A stretch of 64,000 nucleotides of DNA, from NCBI GenBank assembly GCA_963662275.1, contig OY759316.1, positions 2,144,001-2,208,000 on the forward strand. The letters run 5' to 3'. Shown piece by piece: positions 1 to 9,966 of this stretch (its first letter is position 1; each line of letters starts with the position of its first letter). This DNA is from Candidatus Cloacimonadales bacterium (GTDB lineage: Bacteria; Cloacimonadota; Cloacimonadia; Cloacimonadales; DAONDQ01). The position numbers and the translations under genes are program-made. Under the pieces are notes generated by a model. That model was not told the DNA's origin. It did no database searches and was given only the letters and a program-made list of their open reading frames with translations.

Positions 1-1092
1 ATAGAGAAATTTCTTTGGGAATCTAACTCAACTAGCAATGAAAAGACTCTCAAGGATTTGAAAGATAAACAACAACTTGAACCAGGAATTGTTACACTAG
101 ACGGGGTAATAATCGATGGAAACAGAAGAGCGTTTCTATTAAAGAAGTTAGGGGTTAAGTTTTTTAAAGCAATTATATTGCCTGATGAATTGAATAGCGA
201 ACCACAAGAAATAATGAAGCTTGAAACTACTTATCAGATGGGAGAAGATGCAAAAGTAGATTACAATGCGATTGAAAAATATCTGAAATGCAAAGATTTA
301 ATAAATTTCTTCAAACCAAAAGAAATTGCCGATATGATGGGTGAGTCGGAATCACAAATTAAAGAGTATCTCGGAATTATGTCTCTGATGGAAGATTATT
401 TAGAATCACTTGGGTGTGCTGGTATCTACACTGCTCTGGATAAAACTGAAGGTGCTTTTGTTGATATTTGCAAATATTTCAAAGCTTATAGTAAGAGTGT
501 AACAGCAAAATCAGATTGGGAGTATGATGATTCAGATGTTAATGACTTAAAACTGATATATTTTGATTATATCACTTTTATTTATAACAAGTCCAAATCA
601 AGAAATGATGATGAAGATACAATCCTGGGAGGTTCTAAAGATTATCGTTTTATTGGGCAACCAAATAAAAAGACAGGAATTTTCTGTAATGGAAAAGTAT
701 GGGACAAATTCAGTACAGACCATTTTAGAGAGATTGATCCCATTCGTCAGAAATATACTGATGGTGAATATTCAATTGATTCATTAAGAGAAGCAAACCC
801 AACTCAATCTCTAGAACAAATTATTAAGGGAAGGAATGAACAATGGGCAAAGGAAACGGGTAGTTTTCTTAAAAGGAACTTGGGTGAAGGTAAATATTCA
901 TTAGAAAATAAAAACTTACAGAATCAGCCAGAGGAGTTATTGCAACGTGCACTTACAATATTGGAAAATATAGATCCTGAAAAGGAAGGCTTTGCTGCAA
1001 GGAAAAATGTTCATGAGATAGTCTCACAAATCAATAAAATAATGTGGATATTCAAGAAAAAATGCGAAAAATGGAAAGGAGAGGTCGTATGA
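1..1092 (+). CDS. ParB/Srx-like N-terminal domain protein (5'-partial)
   Basis: Frame is open from base 1 (IEKFLWES...). The EPGIVTLDGVIIDGNRR motif matches the ParB/Srx GxxR signature, and an HTH-like segment follows (KEIADMMGESESQIKEYL). Confidence 0.75.
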   Translation: MEKFLWESNSTSNEKTLKDLKDKQQLEPGIVTLDGVIIDGNRRAFLLKKLGVKFFKAIILPDELNSEPQEIMKLETTYQMGEDAKVDYNAIEKYLKCKDLINFFKPKEIADMMGESESQIKEYLGIMSLMEDYLESLGCAGIYTALDKTEGAFVDICKYFKAYSKSVTAKSDWEYDDSDVNDLKLIYFDYITFIYNKSKSRNDDEDTILGGSKDYRFIGQPNKKTGIFCNGKVWDKFSTDHFREIDPIRQKYTDGEYSIDSLREANPTQSLEQIIKGRNEQWAKETGSFLKRNLGEGKYSLENKNLQNQPEELLQRALTILENIDPEKEGFAARKNVHEIVSQINKIMWIFKKKCEKWKGEVV

Positions 1093-3080
1093 CTTATCCT
1101 CAAATAGATGATCAAGTTACTTCAAACAGTTTCGTCATTCGAGATACTGACGGTTTCATCAACTCTAATTATCGAGCTTTTGATTATTTCATGAAAATTT
1201 TAAAAGCTAATTTTGTTGAAGATTTGATATATGTTAAATATACTGAAGAGAATAAGTATCAATTACTGGATCAGGTTACGAAAATTCTACGTAAGTACGG
1301 TATCGAGCTTTCAAGCTCAGATGAAATTCGAGAAATCAACCAGCAGTATTATGCTGAAAAAGAGAATTTCTTGCGTTTTAGTGAATCTGCTTTTAAAATT
1401 AGGAATAATATCGTTGATGCACAAGATTTGGATTACTTCACAAGTGCTTTAAAAAGAAAACTCACTTTCAGAACTTTATATGACCTACAATTGCTATCTT
1501 CTTATCATCTGGCTTTTTCTCAGAATTCATGTAATTTTTCAGTACCGGGGTCTGGTAAAACATCTATTGTTTTCGGTGCTTTTTCATATCTTTCAGGTCT
1601 ATCTGAAGAAAATTCAAAATATGTTAATAAGTTATTTGTTGTTGGTCCACTAAGCTCATTCGGACCATGGGAAGATGAATATGAGAATTGTTTTGGGAGA
1701 AAGCCATACTCAAGAAGATTATCAGGTGGTATATCAAAATCTGAAAGAGATGCCACACTGCTTTCGGTGGATAATTCGCAAAATACACCAGAAATGTTGT
1801 TAATATCTTATCCTGGGCTATGCTCTGATTACGATAACATAATTACCTATTTATCTAAACCTTCAAACAAAGTAATGATGGTCCTAGATGAAGCTCATCG
1901 AATAAAAAATACTGAAGAAGGTTTATGGGCGCAAACTGTTCTAAGTTTAGCAAAATATTGTAAATCTAGGGTTGTACTTACAGGAACTCCAGCACCAAAT
2001 GGATACGAAGATTTATATAATTTATACAAGTTTATTTGGCCACAAAGTAAAATTATCAATTATAGTCCAAGACAACTAAAAGATATGACCCAAAATCGGT
2101 TTGATTATCGAGTCAATGATCTAATTTCAAGCATTTCTCCCTTTTTTATTAGGATTAGGAAATCTGATTTGCATCTCCCCTCATTTATAAATCACAAACC
2201 AGATTTTATTGAAATGAATCCTGCCCAAAAAGAAATATATAACTTGATTGAAAATCGATATTTATTTGGTTATGTTGATGATCATCCAGATATTGATGTT
2301 TCAAAATCATTTTTCAAAGCTCGACTAGTTAGGTTAATGCAAGCCGCATCTAACCCAGTTTTATTGAAGTATTCTATAACAGATTATTATCTTGATGGAG
2401 AAAAAATAACTTCAGATGAATCTCTTGATAATGATATACTTAGAAAGATAGATGACTATTTAAAAACAAATGAATATCCTACAAAATACTGGATTATATT
2501 AAGTATGGTCCAAGATATTATTAAACAAAATCAAAAAGTAGTTATTTGGGGTCTGTATATCCAAAGCATAAAGGAACTACAGAAATTCCTTAATAACAAC
2601 GGTATCAATTCAGAATTACTTATCGGTGAAACCCCAGTTGAGGTAGATACTTCCCAAGATGAGATAAGAACACGTGAATGTATAATAAGAGACTTTAATA
2701 ATACAAAGATTGATTTGAAAGTCATTATTGCTAACCCAATGGCAGTTGCAGAATCTATATCAATCCATAAAGCTTGTCACAATGCTATTTATTTTGAAAG
2801 AAATTTTAACGCAGCTTATTTTATACAATCTAAGGACAGGATTCACAGAGTTGGGTTACCGGAAGGAGTTTCAACGAACTATTATTATTTAATTTCTCAG
2901 GATACAGTAGAAGAGACTATTCATAAAAGTCTATTGGTAAAAGAAGAAAGAATGTTGCAAATACTTGAATCCCAAGAAATACCCCTATTTACTGAAAATA
3001 TGAATTATGATATTGACATTAACTCTGATTTTAAACTTGTAATAAAAGACTATGTTAACAGAGTATCTGAAAACCACTGA
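1089..3080 (+). CDS. SNF2-family (SF2) ATPase/helicase
   Basis: Motifs: I SVPGSGKT, Ia VVGPLSSFGPW, II LDEAHRIKN, III LTGTPAPN, VI QSKDRIHRVG. The ATG at 1089 follows GAGG and overlaps the upstream stop (ATGA). Confidence 0.9.
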   Translation: MTYPQIDDQVTSNSFVIRDTDGFINSNYRAFDYFMKILKANFVEDLIYVKYTEENKYQLLDQVTKILRKYGIELSSSDEIREINQQYYAEKENFLRFSESAFKIRNNIVDAQDLDYFTSALKRKLTFRTLYDLQLLSSYHLAFSQNSCNFSVPGSGKTSIVFGAFSYLSGLSEENSKYVNKLFVVGPLSSFGPWEDEYENCFGRKPYSRRLSGGISKSERDATLLSVDNSQNTPEMLLISYPGLCSDYDNIITYLSKPSNKVMMVLDEAHRIKNTEEGLWAQTVLSLAKYCKSRVVLTGTPAPNGYEDLYNLYKFIWPQSKIINYSPRQLKDMTQNRFDYRVNDLISSISPFFIRIRKSDLHLPSFINHKPDFIEMNPAQKEIYNLIENRYLFGYVDDHPDIDVSKSFFKARLVRLMQAASNPVLLKYSITDYYLDGEKITSDESLDNDILRKIDDYLKTNEYPTKYWIILSMVQDIIKQNQKVVIWGLYIQSIKELQKFLNNNGINSELLIGETPVEVDTSQDEIRTRECIIRDFNNTKIDLKVIIANPMAVAESISIHKACHNAIYFERNFNAAYFIQSKDRIHRVGLPEGVSTNYYYLISQDTVEETIHKSLLVKEERMLQILESQEIPLFTENMNYDIDINSDFKLVIKDYVNRVSENH

Positions 3081-4044
3081 TTTGATTCAGCTTGAGGATT
3101 TAGATTTTTTTCTTTTCAATGCTATATCAAGCAAAGTACAGAAGTTAGAGTCAATTAGGAAATATTGTTTAAATAGTAGATATACGATGGTTAGTACATT
3201 TAACTCAATAATTGTGTTTTTAATTTGGTTAAATCTTATTGATCTGATTGATGGAAAATATGTAAGAAGAAATTCCAATTTTGATAAGAAATACTCTAAA
3301 TTTGAATCCCTAGCGTATTTCAAAGATATTGATTTTTGTAATTTGATTATGAAGTATTTGAAAAAGGATCATGAATTGGAGTCCATTTTTAATGTAAGGA
3401 CTTTAAAACTGGATATTGTTAGCAATAGCTATTTTTTACATGATAATTTGATTCCTAATAGATTTAGGAGCTTACTAAATATCCTTATTCAAGTTGGTTT
3501 CTTTAGTAGAAAGCAGAGCCAATTGTATATTTCTGATAAATACAGGAAGTTAATCGAAAAAGATTTAATACCCTTTTTGATTAACAAACACCAGCATAAA
3601 CTCAAACTATCGCTAGATGATTTGAAAAAGAAGATTGATCTGAATAATTTGCATGGAGAAGCAGCTGAACATTTAGTATTGAATTATGAGCTACAACGAC
3701 TTGCCAATCATCCCAATATTCAGTTAGTAAAAATAATCTCAGAAGTTGATGTATGCGCTGGTTATGATATTGTTTCCTTTAATAACCTTAACTCATGCAT
3801 TCCAGACAGATACATAGAAGTTAAATCTTATAGTGATGAATGCACGTTTTACATTTCAAGAAATGAAATAGAAACAGCAAAAAAATACTTAACTAATTAT
3901 TACTTATACTTAGTTGATAGAAATCGAATTGATGAATTTGATTATCAACCTTTTATTATTCAAAACCCCTATTTAAACGTATTTTGCAATAAAAAATGGG
4001 ATAAATTTGTTGATAACTGGTTCATTAGACGTAATATAGATTAG
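3052..4044 (+). CDS. DUF3883 (NO VEIN C-terminal-like) PD-(D/E)xK nuclease domain protein
   Basis: C-terminal GEAAE..V...E, GYDIVSF, YIEVKS, FYISRNE and YYLYLV motifs. Start overlaps the end of the SNF2 gene. Confidence 0.85.
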   Translation: MLTEYLKTTDLIQLEDLDFFLFNAISSKVQKLESIRKYCLNSRYTMVSTFNSIIVFLIWLNLIDLIDGKYVRRNSNFDKKYSKFESLAYFKDIDFCNLIMKYLKKDHELESIFNVRTLKLDIVSNSYFLHDNLIPNRFRSLLNILIQVGFFSRKQSQLYISDKYRKLIEKDLIPFLINKHQHKLKLSLDDLKKKIDLNNLHGEAAEHLVLNYELQRLANHPNIQLVKIISEVDVCAGYDIVSFNNLNSCIPDRYIEVKSYSDECTFYISRNEIETAKKYLTNYYLYLVDRNRIDEFDYQPFIIQNPYLNVFCNKKWDKFVDNWFIRRNID

Positions 4045-4534
4045 ACTCATTATTGAAATTAATTCTTATCTAATTATGAATGAAAACTTTTATCCCATCA
4101 CATCTTCCACCAATCCATTCGGATAGAGATAGCTCATAGACTCTTTTCGGAATATGGGATTGATCTTATGGATAATCCTGTGATGATTTGGACAAATGAC
4201 AAGCAGGTTATCTGAATCATTATTCAAAGAACGGGTATAATAATCGATATGATGAATTTCGGAAAGGGGTGTCCAGTATCTGTCAGTAAAATCATGACCG
4301 CAGATCTGGCATTTGTTATTATAGATTTCCTTGAGCGTATCTCCGATGGAGCGATTGTATTTCCTGATTTTGATATTGCTGGATATTTCGGAGTGAGAGA
4401 GCATAGTGTACGCTCCAACAGAGCCACGTCTTCGGAAAAATAGAGCCACCTAATTCGGAGATGAGAGCCACTCTTCTATTTTCAATAATTAATACAGGTA
4501 ATATACAAAAAAATAAGCTATAACTAATCTTTTT

Positions 4535-4587
4535 GCGACGGCTGCCGTGAAGTGAGGCCGTAGGCCGAGCGAAGCGGCAGCCGTCGC
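4535..4587. other. GC-rich nested hairpin inside IS21, downstream of istB
   Basis: Perfect 13-bp stem GCGACGGCTGCCG/CGGCAGCCGTCGC enclosing GGCC-GTA-GGCC. Confidence 0.6.
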
Positions 4588-4625
4588 CGGGAAAGTTGTA
4601 GTACCATCCCAAGTATTAACTATCG

Positions 4626-5372
4626 TTATTCTTTCTTAATGCCATTGCGTTCTCTCATTGACACTTTACCATCGATAAAAATAGGATAGGAATCGTGTAT
4701 AATCCGGTCAAGGATGGCATCGGCAAGGGTTTCCTGACCAATCTTCTCATGCCATCCTCCGGTTCTGAACTGAGAACAGAAGATCGTTGATGAGTGCTGA
4801 TGCCTCGCTTCGATAATCTCCAAAAGATCTCTTGCCTCTTGTTCTCTGAGTGGTGTCAGCAGCCATTCATCAAGTATCAGCAGTTTGATCTGCTTGTATT
4901 GTTTTATGACTTTCTTAAAAATACCTTCACCTCTGGCAACTGCCAGGTCATCCAGCAATTCGGGAAGTCGTATATATCTGACAGGATAATAGTTCCGGCA
5001 GGCTGCTATCCCGAAAGCACAACCCAGCCAGGATTTCCCGTTTCCTGATGCTCCCATAATGATTATATTCCGATTTTCGCTGATGTAACTGCAGGTTGAT
5101 AAACGGATAATCTCAGATCGATCCAGCTTTCTGTCATCATGATATTCTACGTCTTCAATACTTGCCTGGCTGAACTTCAAGTTTGCCTTCTTAATTAGCC
5201 TCTGCAGTCTGTTATTTTTGCGTCTGGCCCATTCAGCATCTACGAGCAGACTGAAGCGTTCTTCGAAAAGCAAATCCTTAAATGCACCATCATGTAATTG
5301 CTGGCAGAAAGTATCAGCCATAGCACTCAAATGCATCTCGTGAAGCTTATTGACTGTTGATTGGCTGATCAT
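4626..5372 (-). CDS. istB: IS21 helper AAA+ ATPase
   Basis: Walker A GASGNGKS, Walker B LLILDEW, and ADAILDRI. Start overlaps the istA stop. Confidence 0.95.
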   Translation of the reverse strand: MISQSTVNKLHEMHLSAMADTFCQQLHDGAFKDLLFEERFSLLVDAEWARRKNNRLQRLIKKANLKFSQASIEDVEYHDDRKLDRSEIIRLSTCSYISENRNIIIMGASGNGKSWLGCAFGIAACRNYYPVRYIRLPELLDDLAVARGEGIFKKVIKQYKQIKLLILDEWLLTPLREQEARDLLEIIEARHQHSSTIFCSQFRTGGWHEKIGQETLADAILDRIIHDSYPIFIDGKVSMRERNGIKKE

Positions 5373-6913
5373 TTATTTTTCCTCCCGTAGTAGTCTGCAC
5401 CTCTGGTAATACCAAAATCAGAAGCAGGATCATTCTTTGCAGTCTCTGCCGCATTATTGATCTTATCAAAACCCGTCTTGAGTATGGTTTGGATATTTTT
5501 ATAACCGGGATTGGGTGTATAAGATAATGCCCTTTGACATGCACTTTCGAGCCTCTGCACAGAATACCTGTCAGCTGATTTCAGAAGTGCCATACAGGAA
5601 CGGTATCCCTGCTGTTCAACACGATAGGATGCCAGAATAGACTTAATTACGATCATCGTATGTTCCCCTATTTCCTTTGCCCAGGAGATAAACCTCTCTG
5701 CATTCCATTCCTGATATTTCTGATGCTGTTCAGGCATATGTTCAGGGAGTGTCTGATACTGACCGGGATGACCAAATTTCCTGACATGGGAAGCGATTCT
5801 GTTGGAGTTATAGAAAACCTCGACAACTCTGCTTGTGATGCGTACATCCACATAGTATTTTATGTATTCATAAGGAACCGAATAGTACATCTTATCCACG
5901 CTTATATGATAATTGAACTGTACTGTTGCCTTTGACCAGGCAGCAAGCTCATATGGCGACAATGACAATGGAATAAGCATGGGCTGTTCTTCTGCCTGAA
6001 AGACACTTTCTCTGCTTCCTTCTTTCTTTTGAAAGGGCTTGGTATTGAACTCTCCCAGTTTTTCCCTGATTGACATATTGAGTTCATGAAGCGAAAAGAA
6101 TGTCTGGTTTCGCAAGGCAGCAATGATCCAGGTTGAGATGACTCCAACTGTGCCTTCTGCACTGGGCTTATCCTTTGGTCTTCTAACTCTGGCAGGTATT
6201 ACCGCAGTATCGTAATAAGCAGACATTTCTCCATAGGTTCTGTTGATAACGGGAGTATACCACGACACATGGTCAACTCCCGTCTTAAGATTATCAGGAA
6301 CAAGTATTTTAGTAACTCCATTAAAGTACTTGAAGCTATTTATATGAGCCTGAATCCAGCTTTCCATATTCATGGAAAGAAAGGCTTCCACATAGGAATA
6401 ACCACTGTACGGGAGGGTTGCTACAAAAACATAGGCTTTGATCGGTTCACCGGTAATGTTGTTTTTGATGGCGGCAGTCTGTCCAGCCCAGTCCACTTCC
6501 AGCTTTTCTCCTGGTTTGTGTTTTATTCGCATGGTTGCTTTTGTCTTTTGTGAGTAATCATGGTAATGTTTGCAAAATTGCGTATACTTGTAGGGAATAG
6601 CCTGATTATTCCTGCATCCCTCAGAGTATTCATGCCAGAGTAGCGACAGTGTTACACCACTCTTGGCAAGTTCCTTGTGTATGTGTTCATAATCAGGCAT
6701 CTTCTGCGGGTTTGACGATAAGTAAGCCGGAAAGAGCTGCTCTTCGATCATCTCATTTGTTAATGTATCAGGAAGCGGCCATTCAAGGCTCTGGTCTGTT
6801 GCCCTTTGAATGATCATCGACACGTTATTGCGGGAACAGGATAAACTCGCCGCTATGCCTCGTCTGCTTATTCCCTGGCTGTGTAAGCGAAGGATCTCTC
6901 GGTAATTGGTCAT
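5369..6913 (-). CDS. istA: IS21 DDE transposase
   Basis: N-terminal HTH, VDWAG, VPDNLKTGV and PKDKPSAE. GGAGG precedes MTNYREIL. Confidence 0.95.
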   Translation of the reverse strand: MTNYREILRLHSQGISRRGIAASLSCSRNNVSMIIQRATDQSLEWPLPDTLTNEMIEEQLFPAYLSSNPQKMPDYEHIHKELAKSGVTLSLLWHEYSEGCRNNQAIPYKYTQFCKHYHDYSQKTKATMRIKHKPGEKLEVDWAGQTAAIKNNITGEPIKAYVFVATLPYSGYSYVEAFLSMNMESWIQAHINSFKYFNGVTKILVPDNLKTGVDHVSWYTPVINRTYGEMSAYYDTAVIPARVRRPKDKPSAEGTVGVISTWIIAALRNQTFFSLHELNMSIREKLGEFNTKPFQKKEGSRESVFQAEEQPMLIPLSLSPYELAAWSKATVQFNYHISVDKMYYSVPYEYIKYYVDVRITSRVVEVFYNSNRIASHVRKFGHPGQYQTLPEHMPEQHQKYQEWNAERFISWAKEIGEHTMIVIKSILASYRVEQQGYRSCMALLKSADRYSVQRLESACQRALSYTPNPGYKNIQTILKTGFDKINNAAETAKNDPASDFGITRGADYYGRKNK

Positions 6914-7612
6914 TGCATTGACCTCCATGAATTGATTTACACTGATACAGTGCATTAATTCATGTTGGTTTTTTCTTTCAAAATAGCAAGGTGGCTCTAT
7001 TTTAGCGAAGACGTGGCTCTAAAACTCCGTACAAGTGGCTCTCATTTAGAATATTATTCAATTGCCCAGTTTATTGATAATTCCACTGTTTTGATCCGCC
7101 ATATAGTAGTTCAGGTATTCTTCGACTTGCGTTTCATTATACTGTTGGATGCTGTTTTGTTCTTCCGCAATATCAGAAGCGAAAATGCATTCTGCAATGA
7201 AGGTATCGGGTTGGCTGGTGAAATAGAAGACTACATATTCTTTCAAGTTTTCGGGGAGTACCAGGTATTTACCTTTTGTTCTATTTTGCAGGATATAAGC
7301 GTAAGAACTTTTGAATACATTCTGGAATTCGAAAGCCATCTTGCTTTTCCTTGAATAACGGAATTGCAGGATGTCCTTATGATCAGGATAATCTGTCTCA
7401 CTGAACCCGACATTGTTGAGGTTAACTTCATATTTTGTATGATCAAGAACAATATGAACTTTTTGACTAGAACCTTTCTCCCTGGTGCTTGGCAGTAACT
7501 CATAGATCATTTCACGAAAAGCGTTAGTTAATGTGATACCGTCAGTCAGTAAAGACCAATCCACTACTTTTTTGAAAGCATAGAGATTATTGCTGCTCAT
7601 ATACGTTCCTTT

Positions 7613-7975
7613 CTATTTTATCGATTTGGACGTATTTGCTTTTTTCAATTTCTTTTGAATAGATTTAACTTCTTCTTCCGTAAAATCAGAATTAACATCT
7701 TCAATGTCCAAATAGTTATATAACTGATAAAGTACAGCAACCACATGCTCGCATACATCTCCCCTATTATCCGGACAAGAGCATTTCCAGGATTTGATCT
7801 TTTCACCGGATAGGGTTATGCTGACGTTATACTTAGTTTTTCCACTGATAACGGCAGTCCACTTCCCTGGTCCTGTGATTGTGAGCTTCTGAACACGATT
7901 CGCATTACAGTAATACATGCCTTTATCCAAGATATCTACTGGTAACTCGGCTTCAAAGTTTTTGAGTGTTAGCAT
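7613..7975 (-). CDS. Short SWIM zinc-finger protein (about 120 aa)
   Basis: CSC-x7-CEH SWIM motif. GGAG RBS before MLTLKNFE. Paralogous to the N-terminus of 8161-9966. Confidence 0.8.
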   Translation of the reverse strand: MLTLKNFEAELPVDILDKGMYYCNANRVQKLTITGPGKWTAVISGKTKYNVSITLSGEKIKSWKCSCPDNRGDVCEHVVAVLYQLYNYLDIEDVNSDFTEEEVKSIQKKLKKANTSKSIK

Positions 7976-8010
7976 AAGAACTCCTTTTAGTAAGCGTACA
8001 GGGTACAAGG

Positions 8011-8170
8011 TCAGTAGGATCGGCATCCTACTCCACATAAGTTCAGTAGGATCGGCATCCTACTCCACATAAGTTCAGTAGGATCGGCATCCTACTCCAC
8101 ATAAGTTCAGCAGGATCGGCGTCCTACTCTACGAAGGTTCAGCAAGAACGGTGTCTTGCTTTACAGAAGA
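8011..8170 (+). repeat. Tandem 32-bp REP-like repeats (3 identical, 2 degenerate)
   Basis: Unit TCAGTAGGATCGGCATCCTACTCCACATAAGT at 8011, 8043 and 8075, with variants at 8107 and 8139. Internal hairpin GTAGGAT-CGGC-ATCCTAC. Confidence 0.9.
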
Positions 8171-9966
8171 TCAGGGAAAGAGCGTTTGAATATCTCTTTC
8201 ATTGCAGGTCGGTTGGAATGGGTGGTTAACAAGTATTTTAATGTGGATTGAACAACCTCTTTTCCGCCTTGTATTTTCAGCATTTTCTTTAAATAACGGG
8301 CAATCATTTCATAGGAATAACGGTCGGTAATTTTGCCCTGCTCAACCATTTTGTCTGCATAGATCGTAAGCATTTCAGCCGGGTATCTCTTCGTAAGATG
8401 TTTGGCATATTCATCAATAAATTGCAAAGATAATTTACTATGTTGAATCATACTTAATAAACGGTCGATGTAGCCTTCTGTAATGAAAATATCTGCAAGA
8501 AATGAAGCTCTGTATATCACATCATCTTTTGATTTGTTGAGGTGATAATCGATGAACTCTTCTGCCTTATCTTTCCAAAGATCAGCTGGATAGAGAGCTT
8601 TCATTTTGATATAGTAATCATGCTTACAAGCCTTATCCCAATATAATTCTTCGGCATATTTCTGTTGATCCGGTATGTTGTTTTCCAATTCAGCAATATT
8701 ATGAAGATGCCCCAGATAGGTTGAACCGATATGCCTGAATTCCTTGTTCTTGCCATTCATTATAGCTTCTCTGCACAGAATCTTTGCTTTCTCGAAGTTA
8801 CCTTCCGTTATACATTTTTCGATAAGCATCTGTCTGAAAGATTCGAATTGGAGATTGGACATGATAATGGCATTCGCTTCTTCAATACGTTTACTATTTT
8901 GAAAGTAATAATACTTCTTTAGCATCAGATTCTCAACCATATGCTGCCTGTTCTTAGAACTGCTGTTTTCCTTTATCTGATTATCCAAAAGAGAAAGAAA
9001 CAGCTTTTCCTGCTCTTGAGAGTGAATCATATCAGCCATGATATCAAGATAATAATCGGCATTATCGGTATTGTATAAATACGGTTTATGATATTCTTTC
9101 ATAATATAATCGAACATTTCGTTTTGAAATTTCGAATCAGCATTACTATGGATAAAGGCAACTGTGTTTACTATTTCATTCATTAATCCGGCAAGATAAT
9201 CTTCAGAATTTTCTGTGATTCTCTTAGCCTTTAGTATCTGTTCCGTTATGTTCTGACAAATAGCCCAAGCCTGCATTGTGTCCTCTTTTTCTGTTAATGC
9301 AATGGCTTTTTTGATGAGATCAGATAATTCATCATAGCATTCAGAGTTATTTTCGAAGGAATCGAAGTCGTCGTAGTCTTCGTAATCATATTCTTCGTAA
9401 TCTGAATAATCAGCAAATTTATTGATAATTTCAGAAACTATCTTCTTGTATTTTTTAAAAGGATCACCAGGTATTTTGTCTGAAAAGTAATGTGTAAAGT
9501 AAGTATGAGCTTCATCAACATCCTTAAAGATATCTTCACAAAACTTAATTAATTCAGGCATTGTGAGACTCGCTAGAATCAGTGCGGTTTGCTTATCCTT
9601 GGCATCTTTTTTAGGCTTTAGAGCTTTGGCTTTGCTAATTTCCTTAACAAGAAATTCAGTCTCTTCTTCAGTAAAGTCATCATCCTGATCAATAATTTCC
9701 AGATGATCATACAATTTGTATATTACAGCCACCACATGCTTGCAAATATCTCCCATATCATATGGGCAATTACAGTGCCAATCCGTGATGTTTTCTCCGT
9801 TCAGGGAGACTTGTACTTTGTATTTATTTGTACCATGTACAACAGCTTTCCATAAGCCGGGTTTTGATTCAGTCAGCATGTTGACACGCTTTTCACGATA
9901 GTAATCATTTCCACGATCTAAAATCGAATCTGCAATTTCTACTTCAAAGTTTTGAAAAGTTAGCAT
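8161..9966 (-). CDS. SWIM zinc-finger protein with helical C-terminal region
   Basis: ILDRGNDYY...CNC-x7-CKH SWIM motif followed by an acidic linker and a long helical region. Confidence 0.85.
   Translation of the reverse strand: MLTFQNFEVEIADSILDRGNDYYREKRVNMLTESKPGLWKAVVHGTNKYKVQVSLNGENITDWHCNCPYDMGDICKHVVAVIYKLYDHLEIIDQDDDFTEEETEFLVKEISKAKALKPKKDAKDKQTALILASLTMPELIKFCEDIFKDVDEAHTYFTHYFSDKIPGDPFKKYKKIVSEIINKFADYSDYEEYDYEDYDDFDSFENNSECYDELSDLIKKAIALTEKEDTMQAWAICQNITEQILKAKRITENSEDYLAGLMNEIVNTVAFIHSNADSKFQNEMFDYIMKEYHKPYLYNTDNADYYLDIMADMIHSQEQEKLFLSLLDNQIKENSSSKNRQHMVENLMLKKYYYFQNSKRIEEANAIIMSNLQFESFRQMLIEKCITEGNFEKAKILCREAIMNGKNKEFRHIGSTYLGHLHNIAELENNIPDQQKYAEELYWDKACKHDYYIKMKALYPADLWKDKAEEFIDYHLNKSKDDVIYRASFLADIFITEGYIDRLLSMIQHSKLSLQFIDEYAKHLTKRYPAEMLTIYADKMVEQGKITDRYSYEMIARYLKKMLKIQGGKEVVQSTLKYLLTTHSNRPAMKEIFKRSFPDLL

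Follow-up and report, generated by a model that had tools for sequence, protein, structure and literature searches.

The 64,000-nucleotide stretch analysed here, hereafter the window (G000:C1:2144001-2208000, contig OY759316.1 of a Candidatus Cloacimonadales bacterium), opens inside a five-gene operon that encodes, in order, a very-short-patch repair endonuclease (Vsr), a C5 DNA methylase, a ParB-like protein, an SNF2-family ATPase and a NOV_C nuclease. This cassette is real, widespread and unnamed, and appears to be a variant related to AbiR of Lactococcus lactis; its distribution and gene content, described below, support its being a conserved, horizontally moved, defence-like unit. The original prediction, made from the window alone, had proposed an unnamed three-part unit of ParB-like, SNF2 and nuclease genes. 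Its conserved, mobile and defence-like character was borne out, but the unit includes the methylase, and the ParB-SNF2 pair is 27-33% identical to those of loci with an AbiR layout. The five genes are as follows (window positions unless marked otherwise; L001 is the wider locus that includes the upstream DNA):

G000:C1:2141619-2142065 (L001:13619-14065), upstream of the window, + strand: vsr, very-short-patch repair endonuclease, 148 aa (NCBIfam TIGR00632, Pfam Vsr)
G000:C1:2142043-2143758 (L001:14043-15758), upstream of the window, + strand: C5 DNA cytosine methyltransferase, 571 aa, with a C-terminal tail of ~215 residues (Pfam DNA_methylase)
1..1092 (full gene G000:C1:2143767-2145092, starting 234 bases before the window), + strand: ParB/Srx-fold protein, 441 aa (fold match)
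1089..3080, + strand: SNF2-family ATPase, 663 aa, without a fused nuclease (Pfam SNF2-rel_dom and Helicase_C)
3052..4044, + strand: effector, 330 aa, with an N-terminal domain (1-185) and a NOV_C/DUF3883 PD-(D/E)xK nuclease domain (Pfam NOV_C)

The three open reading frames (ORFs) predicted at 1-1092, 1089-3080 and 3052-4044 are present in the sequence, with an ATGA overlap at 1089-1092 between the ParB-like and SNF2 genes and a 29-nt overlap at 3052-3080 between the SNF2 and nuclease genes. It had also been suspected that the operon starts before the window and that a methyltransferase lies upstream; when the upstream genome was read, vsr and the C5 methyltransferase proved to be its first two genes, which puts its start 2.4 kb ahead of the window. 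The 3' end of vsr overlaps the methylase gene, which stops 8 bases before the ParB-like start. The AT-richness noted earlier is pronounced: the guanine-plus-cytosine content of the 6.4-kb cassette is 31.2%, compared with a genome mean of 39.1%, and none of 681 equal-sized windows of the genome is as low. The segment L001 12753-20000, which includes the operon as far as window position 4000, was matched with zero mismatches by one contig in each of the runs X1 and X3, one of which may be the source sample.

The ParB-like protein had no match above cut-off in Pfam, NCBIfam or PADLOC, and loci of this kind are therefore under-annotated by PADLOC 2.0 and NCBIfam 20.0. Its AlphaFold model (predicted local distance difference test, pLDDT, 95; 127-sequence alignment) consists of a ParB N-domain, a helix-turn-helix (HTH) at residues ~168-215, and helical middle and C-terminal domains, and matched Noc, ParB, KorB and 5K5D in Foldseek, in agreement with the ParB/Srx-like domain and HTH read from the letters alone. 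The top structural match was 5K5D (VIA-align: Z 10.5, root-mean-square deviation 3.6, 211 aligned). Residues N47, N50, R52, Q103, N119-R120-R121, E153 and Q157, covering the motifs NxxNxR, NRR and ExxxQ, are invariant in 127/127 homologues, and the family comprises 1705 matches when clustered at 90% and 1251 when clustered at 50%. According to a survey (10.1101/2025.10.10.680097), no sequence rule reliably tells whether a ParB fold binds CTP, ATP or GTP, and the nucleoside triphosphate (NTP) of the ParB-like protein is therefore unpredictable. A predicted complex of this protein with the methylase scored 0.00, which is no evidence either way.

The SNF2 motor is complete, as had been anticipated: the protein matched Pfam SNF2-rel_dom (E 4e-20) and Helicase_C, and GKT (156-158), DEAH (267-270), TP (300-301) and the motif VI pairs D583-R584 and H586-R587 are kept in 76/76 aligned sequences. 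The three-part combination had been matched to no named system; in PADLOC this stood for the ParB-like protein, whereas the SNF2 protein gave partial matches to the motors of known systems and nothing further. The effector carries a NOV_C domain (Pfam E 6e-14), which we take to be the family formerly called DUF3883. With E206, D239 and E256-x-K258 invariant in 37/37 sequences, the predicted C-terminal PD-(D/E)xK nuclease has intact catalytic residues; DUF3883 is likewise a synonym of NOV_C in the accessible part of PMC11232893. The N-terminal domain (1-185) evolves fast and is, by inference, winged-helix-like. Atlas searches with it returned leads that all fell below 0.9 (an unnamed cluster at 0.83, BpuJI_N at 0.78), and the effector profile had no meaningful match in the PDB. 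In six loci, which form one clade (support 91) in a quick tree, the N-terminal domain is fused to TIR instead of NOV_C (Pfam TIR_2 in 6/6 candidates scanned).

The two upstream genes are equally intact. Vsr scored 119 bits against the NCBIfam TIGR00632 cut-off of 97.85 (Pfam Vsr E 5e-23). The methylase matched Pfam DNA_methylase over residues 11-371 (E 1.8e-37), and PC85, E130NV and G355N are invariant in 38/38 aligned relatives. In the methylase model (pLDDT 90.7), the ~215-residue tail after motif X is folded and belongs to no assigned family; the Foldseek matches listed for the model were methyltransferases only, with nothing on the tail, and an atlas search with the tail gave a lead of 0.76 (<0.9) to DNA_methylase clusters.

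Relatives were collected by scanning species genomes with a 70-sequence ParB-like alignment, since neither a single-protein scan of genome contigs, which matched nothing, nor a pattern scan, for which the 127-sequence alignment was too diverged, was productive. The scan confirmed 216 loci, of which the best 80 were analysed; locus counts are therefore biased towards close relatives. These 80 loci carry 16 phylum labels, one of them archaeal. SNF2 was present in 78, a C5 methylase in 76 (75 by catalytic core and 1 by tail only), Vsr in 32, NOV_C in 61, TIR in place of NOV_C in 6, a BanI-like gene in 29, a Sau3AI-like gene in 4 and an AbiRa-like gene in 0. The ParB-like, SNF2 and effector genes are thus conserved together. 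Every locus without SNF2 or methylase ends at a contig edge, and the 13 loci without an effector match include 9 cut by an edge, 1 truncated and 3 with a Sau3AI-like gene in the effector slot. Two apparent methylase-ParB fusions (L035 and P0128) were set aside as probable frameshift artefacts, both beginning inside the methylase and the L035 SNF2 gene also being split; one ParB-SNF2 fusion was found (P0270).

Around the constant ParB-SNF2 pair, three slots vary, namely the effector, the methylation writer and, by our reading, the reader of the methylation site. Among the 68 methylases found by motif, 67 were scored: 38 have a tail of 212-249 residues and lie in loci without a BanI-like or Sau3AI-like gene, and 29 have an end of 20-34 residues, one or the other of these genes being present in every one of their loci. 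Aligned with each other and not with an active enzyme, 27 full-length BanI-like proteins share one invariant aspartate and no conserved acid or lysine at the two other positions presumed to be catalytic; this suggests that the BanI-like partner is a non-cutting reader. In 32 long-tail loci, the pairwise distances of the different methylase parts correlate well with one another (rho 0.84-0.87) but poorly with those of the ParB-SNF2-effector trio (0.12-0.28). Distances of the ParB middle follow those of the SNF2 core (0.73), and for the effector N-domain the closest correlation is with SNF2 (0.52-0.59). These correlations, which are descriptive because the pairs are not independent, suggest exchange of the methylase as one independent module and docking of the effector onto SNF2.

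Writers comprise tailed C5, short C5, type III Mod and N4/N6 methylases: distant ParB-SNF2 pairs adjoin type III Mod-Res genes (L083 and L086), a Sau3AI-type dcm (L084, L085 and L087) or an N4/N6 methylase (L117). At L083:157-8297 and L086:1846-9836, on Lacticaseibacillus and Enterococcus plasmids, the ParB-like and SNF2 genes are appended to the type III Mod-Res operon with no separate effector annotated.

Kinship with AbiR was assessed from layout and from homology to plasmid loci with the AbiR layout, one of them on an Enterococcus plasmid; features of AbiR itself are those given in a 2026 review (PMC13064643). There, AbiR of the Lactococcus lactis plasmid pKR223 consists of AbiRa (sigma70-like), AbiRb (ParB-like, matching 5K5D) and AbiRc (an endonuclease-like domain plus SNF2) together with the LlaKR2I methylase. 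It needs this methylase, is toxic without it, reduces phage DNA replication and is classed as abortive-like, its mechanism being still unclear according to the review. The ParB-like protein of the window is 29-33% identical (BLASTP E 1e-29 to 1e-20) to the ParB proteins of four AbiR-layout plasmid loci, and its SNF2 protein is 27-32% identical (E 1e-77 to 5e-68) to the SNF2 proteins of such loci.

The ParB-like gene is single-copy in this genome, is found in 0/40 relatives and occurs in 2/232 genomes of the phylum, including this one. The sole other carrier found in the phylum (L117:8262-13269, G160:C107) combines SNF2 and NOV_C with a small N4/N6 methylase and a ParB-like protein of 25% identity, and is likely a separately acquired subtype. 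Of 26 loci on viral contigs, 24 were scored after two weak 35-residue matches had been dropped: 20 have a BanI-like gene, 2 a Sau3AI-like gene and none a tailed methylase. Among the nearest flanking proteins, about 16/72 belong by our own reading to defence- or toxin-antitoxin-type Pfam families, 3 are mobile-element genes and roughly one third are housekeeping. This survey covered 72 of 138 listed proteins with no matched control, and lends no statistical support to defence-island enrichment.

The housekeeping neighbours, and a ParB-like model that spans the N-domain and DNA-binding domain as in Spo0J and Noc, are what one would expect if ParB and SNF2 served partition, repair or chromatin-like regulation of the host or an element. 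Such a role is nonetheless highly improbable, given that no ParA-like family was found among the recurring neighbours submitted to Pfam, that the gene was not found in 230/232 phylum genomes, and that the cassette has nuclease and TIR effectors in a constant restriction-modification (R-M) context. The patchy, mobile distribution, with copies on viral contigs and plasmids, and the toxicity of AbiR without its methylase would also suit a selfish addiction module, in which the methylase is the antidote and the trio the poison of post-segregational killing, with little anti-phage value. We regard this as improbable, since AbiR lowers phage DNA replication (PMC13064643, accessible part) and the flanking genes include the above share of defence- or toxin-antitoxin-type families.

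We consider it fairly probable that the cassette is a methylation-gated DNA defence against unmethylated foreign DNA, because a methylase is constantly linked to the pair, with other methylase classes beside distant pairs, because AbiR depends on its methylase, and because HmaA, an SNF2-NOV_C fusion, restricts T4 in a nuclease-dependent manner (PMC11232893, accessible part). In this scenario, the methylase would mark one short site on host DNA, and Vsr would repair the T:G mismatches that arise from 5-methylcytosine deamination, an established pairing. The site reader would most likely be the tailed methylase itself in the tailed subtype, in which case writer and reader would swap as one gene; the second candidate is the N-terminal domain of the effector. 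An unmethylated site on incoming DNA would license the ParB-fold switch and the SNF2 motor: the ParB-like protein would bind an NTP and load or gate the complex, SNF2 would travel on double-stranded DNA with the effector attached through its N-terminal domain, and the NOV_C nuclease would cut the incoming DNA.

The main rival is a guard or abortive back-up, in which the trio would monitor a methylase or R-M system and, once a phage inhibitor has blocked the methylase or methylation has been lost, kill or stall the cell instead of selectively cutting the invader. It would account for the replacement of the effector by TIR in 6/80 loci, for pairs attached to complete-looking type III and Sau3AI-type R-M systems, for the nearly independent exchange of the methylase relative to the trio, and for an AbiR that is abortive-like and toxic without its methylase, as described in PMC13064643. 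However, neither here nor in 36 other long-tail loci (L019 excepted) was a BanI-like or Sau3AI-like enzyme found that could be guarded, and the 27 aligned BanI-like partners, with no conserved acid or lysine at two presumed catalytic positions, look more like readers. We thus hold the guard role to be unlikely, although less so than addiction or housekeeping.

Several observations weigh against methylation gating. Overexpression of HmaB left the sensitivity of T4 to HmaA unchanged, as reported in the accessible part of PMC11232893, and a neighbouring methylase therefore need not gate an SNF2-NOV_C effector. The TIR swap, confined to its single clade, is easier to reconcile with cell suicide than with cutting in cis. 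The alternation of tails with restriction-enzyme-like genes represents only about three independent swaps, the BanI-like genes forming one clade of the quick tree and the Sau3AI-like genes occurring in two places. In L019, the long-tailed methylase has a BglII-like gene as a neighbour, a misfit to the reader pattern. The methylase of L117 is only 288 aa long and this locus lacks a separate reader, so that the reader may lie in the ParB-SNF2-effector trio. The L002 plasmid locus has no methylase among its annotated genes within 7 kb. Finally, the link to AbiR is one of layout and of homology to AbiR-like plasmid loci only.

A broader and rather doubtful reading is that the ParB-fold and SNF2 proteins form a general immune engine into which other parts plug: a DNA clamp gated by an NTP, plus a translocase, that would work with almost any methylation writer-reader (tailed C5 methylase, disabled BanI-like fold, Sau3AI-like, type III or N4/N6) and any effector (NOV_C, PLD or TIR), the C5 methylase of this subtype being itself the sensor and docking via its novel tail. 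If so, AbiR would represent a single branch of a large class that has gone unrecognised, and this would be the first ParB-type clamp switch in restriction.

Some further features accompany these loci. Downstream of the cassette, the window contains:

4090..4379 (ORF 4090-4449), - strand: 3' remnant of an HNH gene interrupted by IS21; adjacent to the system but not a component of it (Pfam HNH E 8e-6)
4380..7060, - strand: IS21-family element with istA (5369-6955) and istB (4626-5372); a neighbour (Pfam IstB_IS21, Mu-transpos_C_2)

An HNH nuclease gene and an insertion sequence had both been noted next to the operon and both are there, but the HNH frame lies on the opposite strand and is cut by IS21, and is therefore a broken neighbour. 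The IS21 copy at 4380-7060 is flanked by a 5-bp duplication (ATTGC), and the 5' part of the HNH gene is likely at 7061-7600. The stub had no match in any of 81 other loci, and HNH was rejected as a cassette component. The genome holds six full-length copies of this IS21 element, 99-100% identical, and three AGAGCCAC units lie close by its left end. Tandem SWIM zinc-finger genes with similar N-termini, at 7613-8038 (141 aa) and 8161-9966 (601 aa), adjoin the broken HNH gene. On the other side, ~0.7 kb before vsr, L001:12200-12870 is a multi-copy variable repeat region with a summed contig depth of up to 20x that of its flanks; it may be the left border of the cassette.

In three genomes, a second, divergent ParB-like paralogue, in a clade of its own, lies with an alpha/beta hydrolase gene beside the full cassette (L024:12343-14443, L036:6384-8477 and L047:7995-10091), possibly a separate two-gene defence module with the same ParB fold. 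The BanI-like subtype, which includes most viral-contig matches, often has an HTH gene, an IrrE/M78 peptidase gene or both as neighbours and sometimes phage-like genes (DUF2800), which suggests carriage on temperate elements of Bacillota. The loci concerned are:

L037, L039-L042, L045, L046, L049, L051, L054-L056, L062, L065, L066, L068, L076, L078

Among known systems, type II C5 R-M with Vsr shares the vsr-dcm pair with intact motifs, and a BanI-like or Sau3AI-like gene occupies a neighbouring slot in 33/80 relatives. The cassette differs in having three extra genes with two NTPase folds, and it appears to lack a stand-alone cognate restriction enzyme (no REase_II match in PADLOC, the sole cutting nuclease being the NOV_C effector). 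The SNF2 motor is shared with DISARM class 1 and 2, Zorya ZorD, DpdE and BREX BrxHII, and the C5 methylase with DISARM class 2 (PADLOC DrmMII match). The DISARM and Zorya matches are partial and restricted to the motor domain (for DrmD 32.6 bits where the cut-off is 610, for ZorD 49.4 where it is 1500), and none of the other core genes of DISARM, Zorya, Dpd or BREX was found. DISARM was rejected on its weak partial DrmA/DrmD matches on SNF2, with no DrmB or DrmC listed across the 8 scanned proteins, and Zorya and Dpd were rejected as well. Azaca, described in the accessible part of 10.1101/2025.07.10.664194 as a DUF6361 protein, a PLD nuclease and an SF2 helicase, was rejected because no operon protein matched DUF6361 or PLD.

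The Hma/Gao restriction-like systems resemble the cassette in their SNF2 motor, NOV_C PD-(D/E)xK nuclease and adjacent methylase. According to the accessible part of PMC11232893, Hma consists of HmaA (SNF2-NOV_C), HmaB (DUF1156) and HmaC (DUF499), whereas here NOV_C has a gene of its own, the methylase is of the classical C5 type (PF00145), a DUF499 ATPase is absent and a ParB-fold protein is a constant part. Hma was rejected on the unfused NOV_C, the PF00145 methylase and the lack of an Hma model among the PADLOC matches listed. A full-text literature search returned no description of the vsr-methylase-ParB-SNF2-NOV_C/TIR layout, including in the accessible parts of PMC12839542, PMC3710099 and PMC10853773; most subscription papers and supplements lay outside its coverage, and defence-screen tables could list the layout.

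DefenseFinder tracks AbiR (10.1101/2024.02.29.582594). PADLOC 2.0 gave no AbiR-named match even on the AbiR-layout plasmid loci. Our cassette has no AbiRa: the 864-aa AbiRa-like protein of L002, used as a stand-in for the sigma70-like protein, matched 0/80 genome and 0/24 viral loci, and profile comparison with the methylase and effector alignments gave no match either. The C-terminal half of a MutH/Sau3AI-like protein at L084:9862-11421 matches the C-terminal part of this stand-in (E 3e-9), hinting that AbiRa may be a detached piece of a restriction-enzyme reader. The 663-aa SNF2 protein lacks the N-terminal PLD nuclease (no PLDc_2 match) that the L085 and L087 SNF2 proteins carry (857 and 883 aa). 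Instead, there is a separate effector with an N-domain and NOV_C (or TIR), and a tailed C5 methylase with Vsr replaces the Sau3AI-type R-M pair. Because AbiRa and PLD, two defining features, are missing, the cassette was not filed as AbiR; AbiRb/c-like pairs without AbiRa were likewise left unassigned in a SAR11 study (PMC13712998, accessible part). On the other hand, the two share adjacent ParB-fold and SNF2 genes, 5K5D as the best fold match and a linked DNA methylase, and the AbiR-layout plasmid loci share the DGNRR and ExxxQ motifs of the ParB-like protein. Thus, as judged from sequence comparison, the cassette appears to be an unnamed relative of AbiR, compact, intact and widespread, with defined catalytic residues and natural effector swaps, and it would offer a way to ask how a ParB-fold nucleotide switch, together with an SNF2 motor, translates the methylation state of DNA into cutting or cell death.

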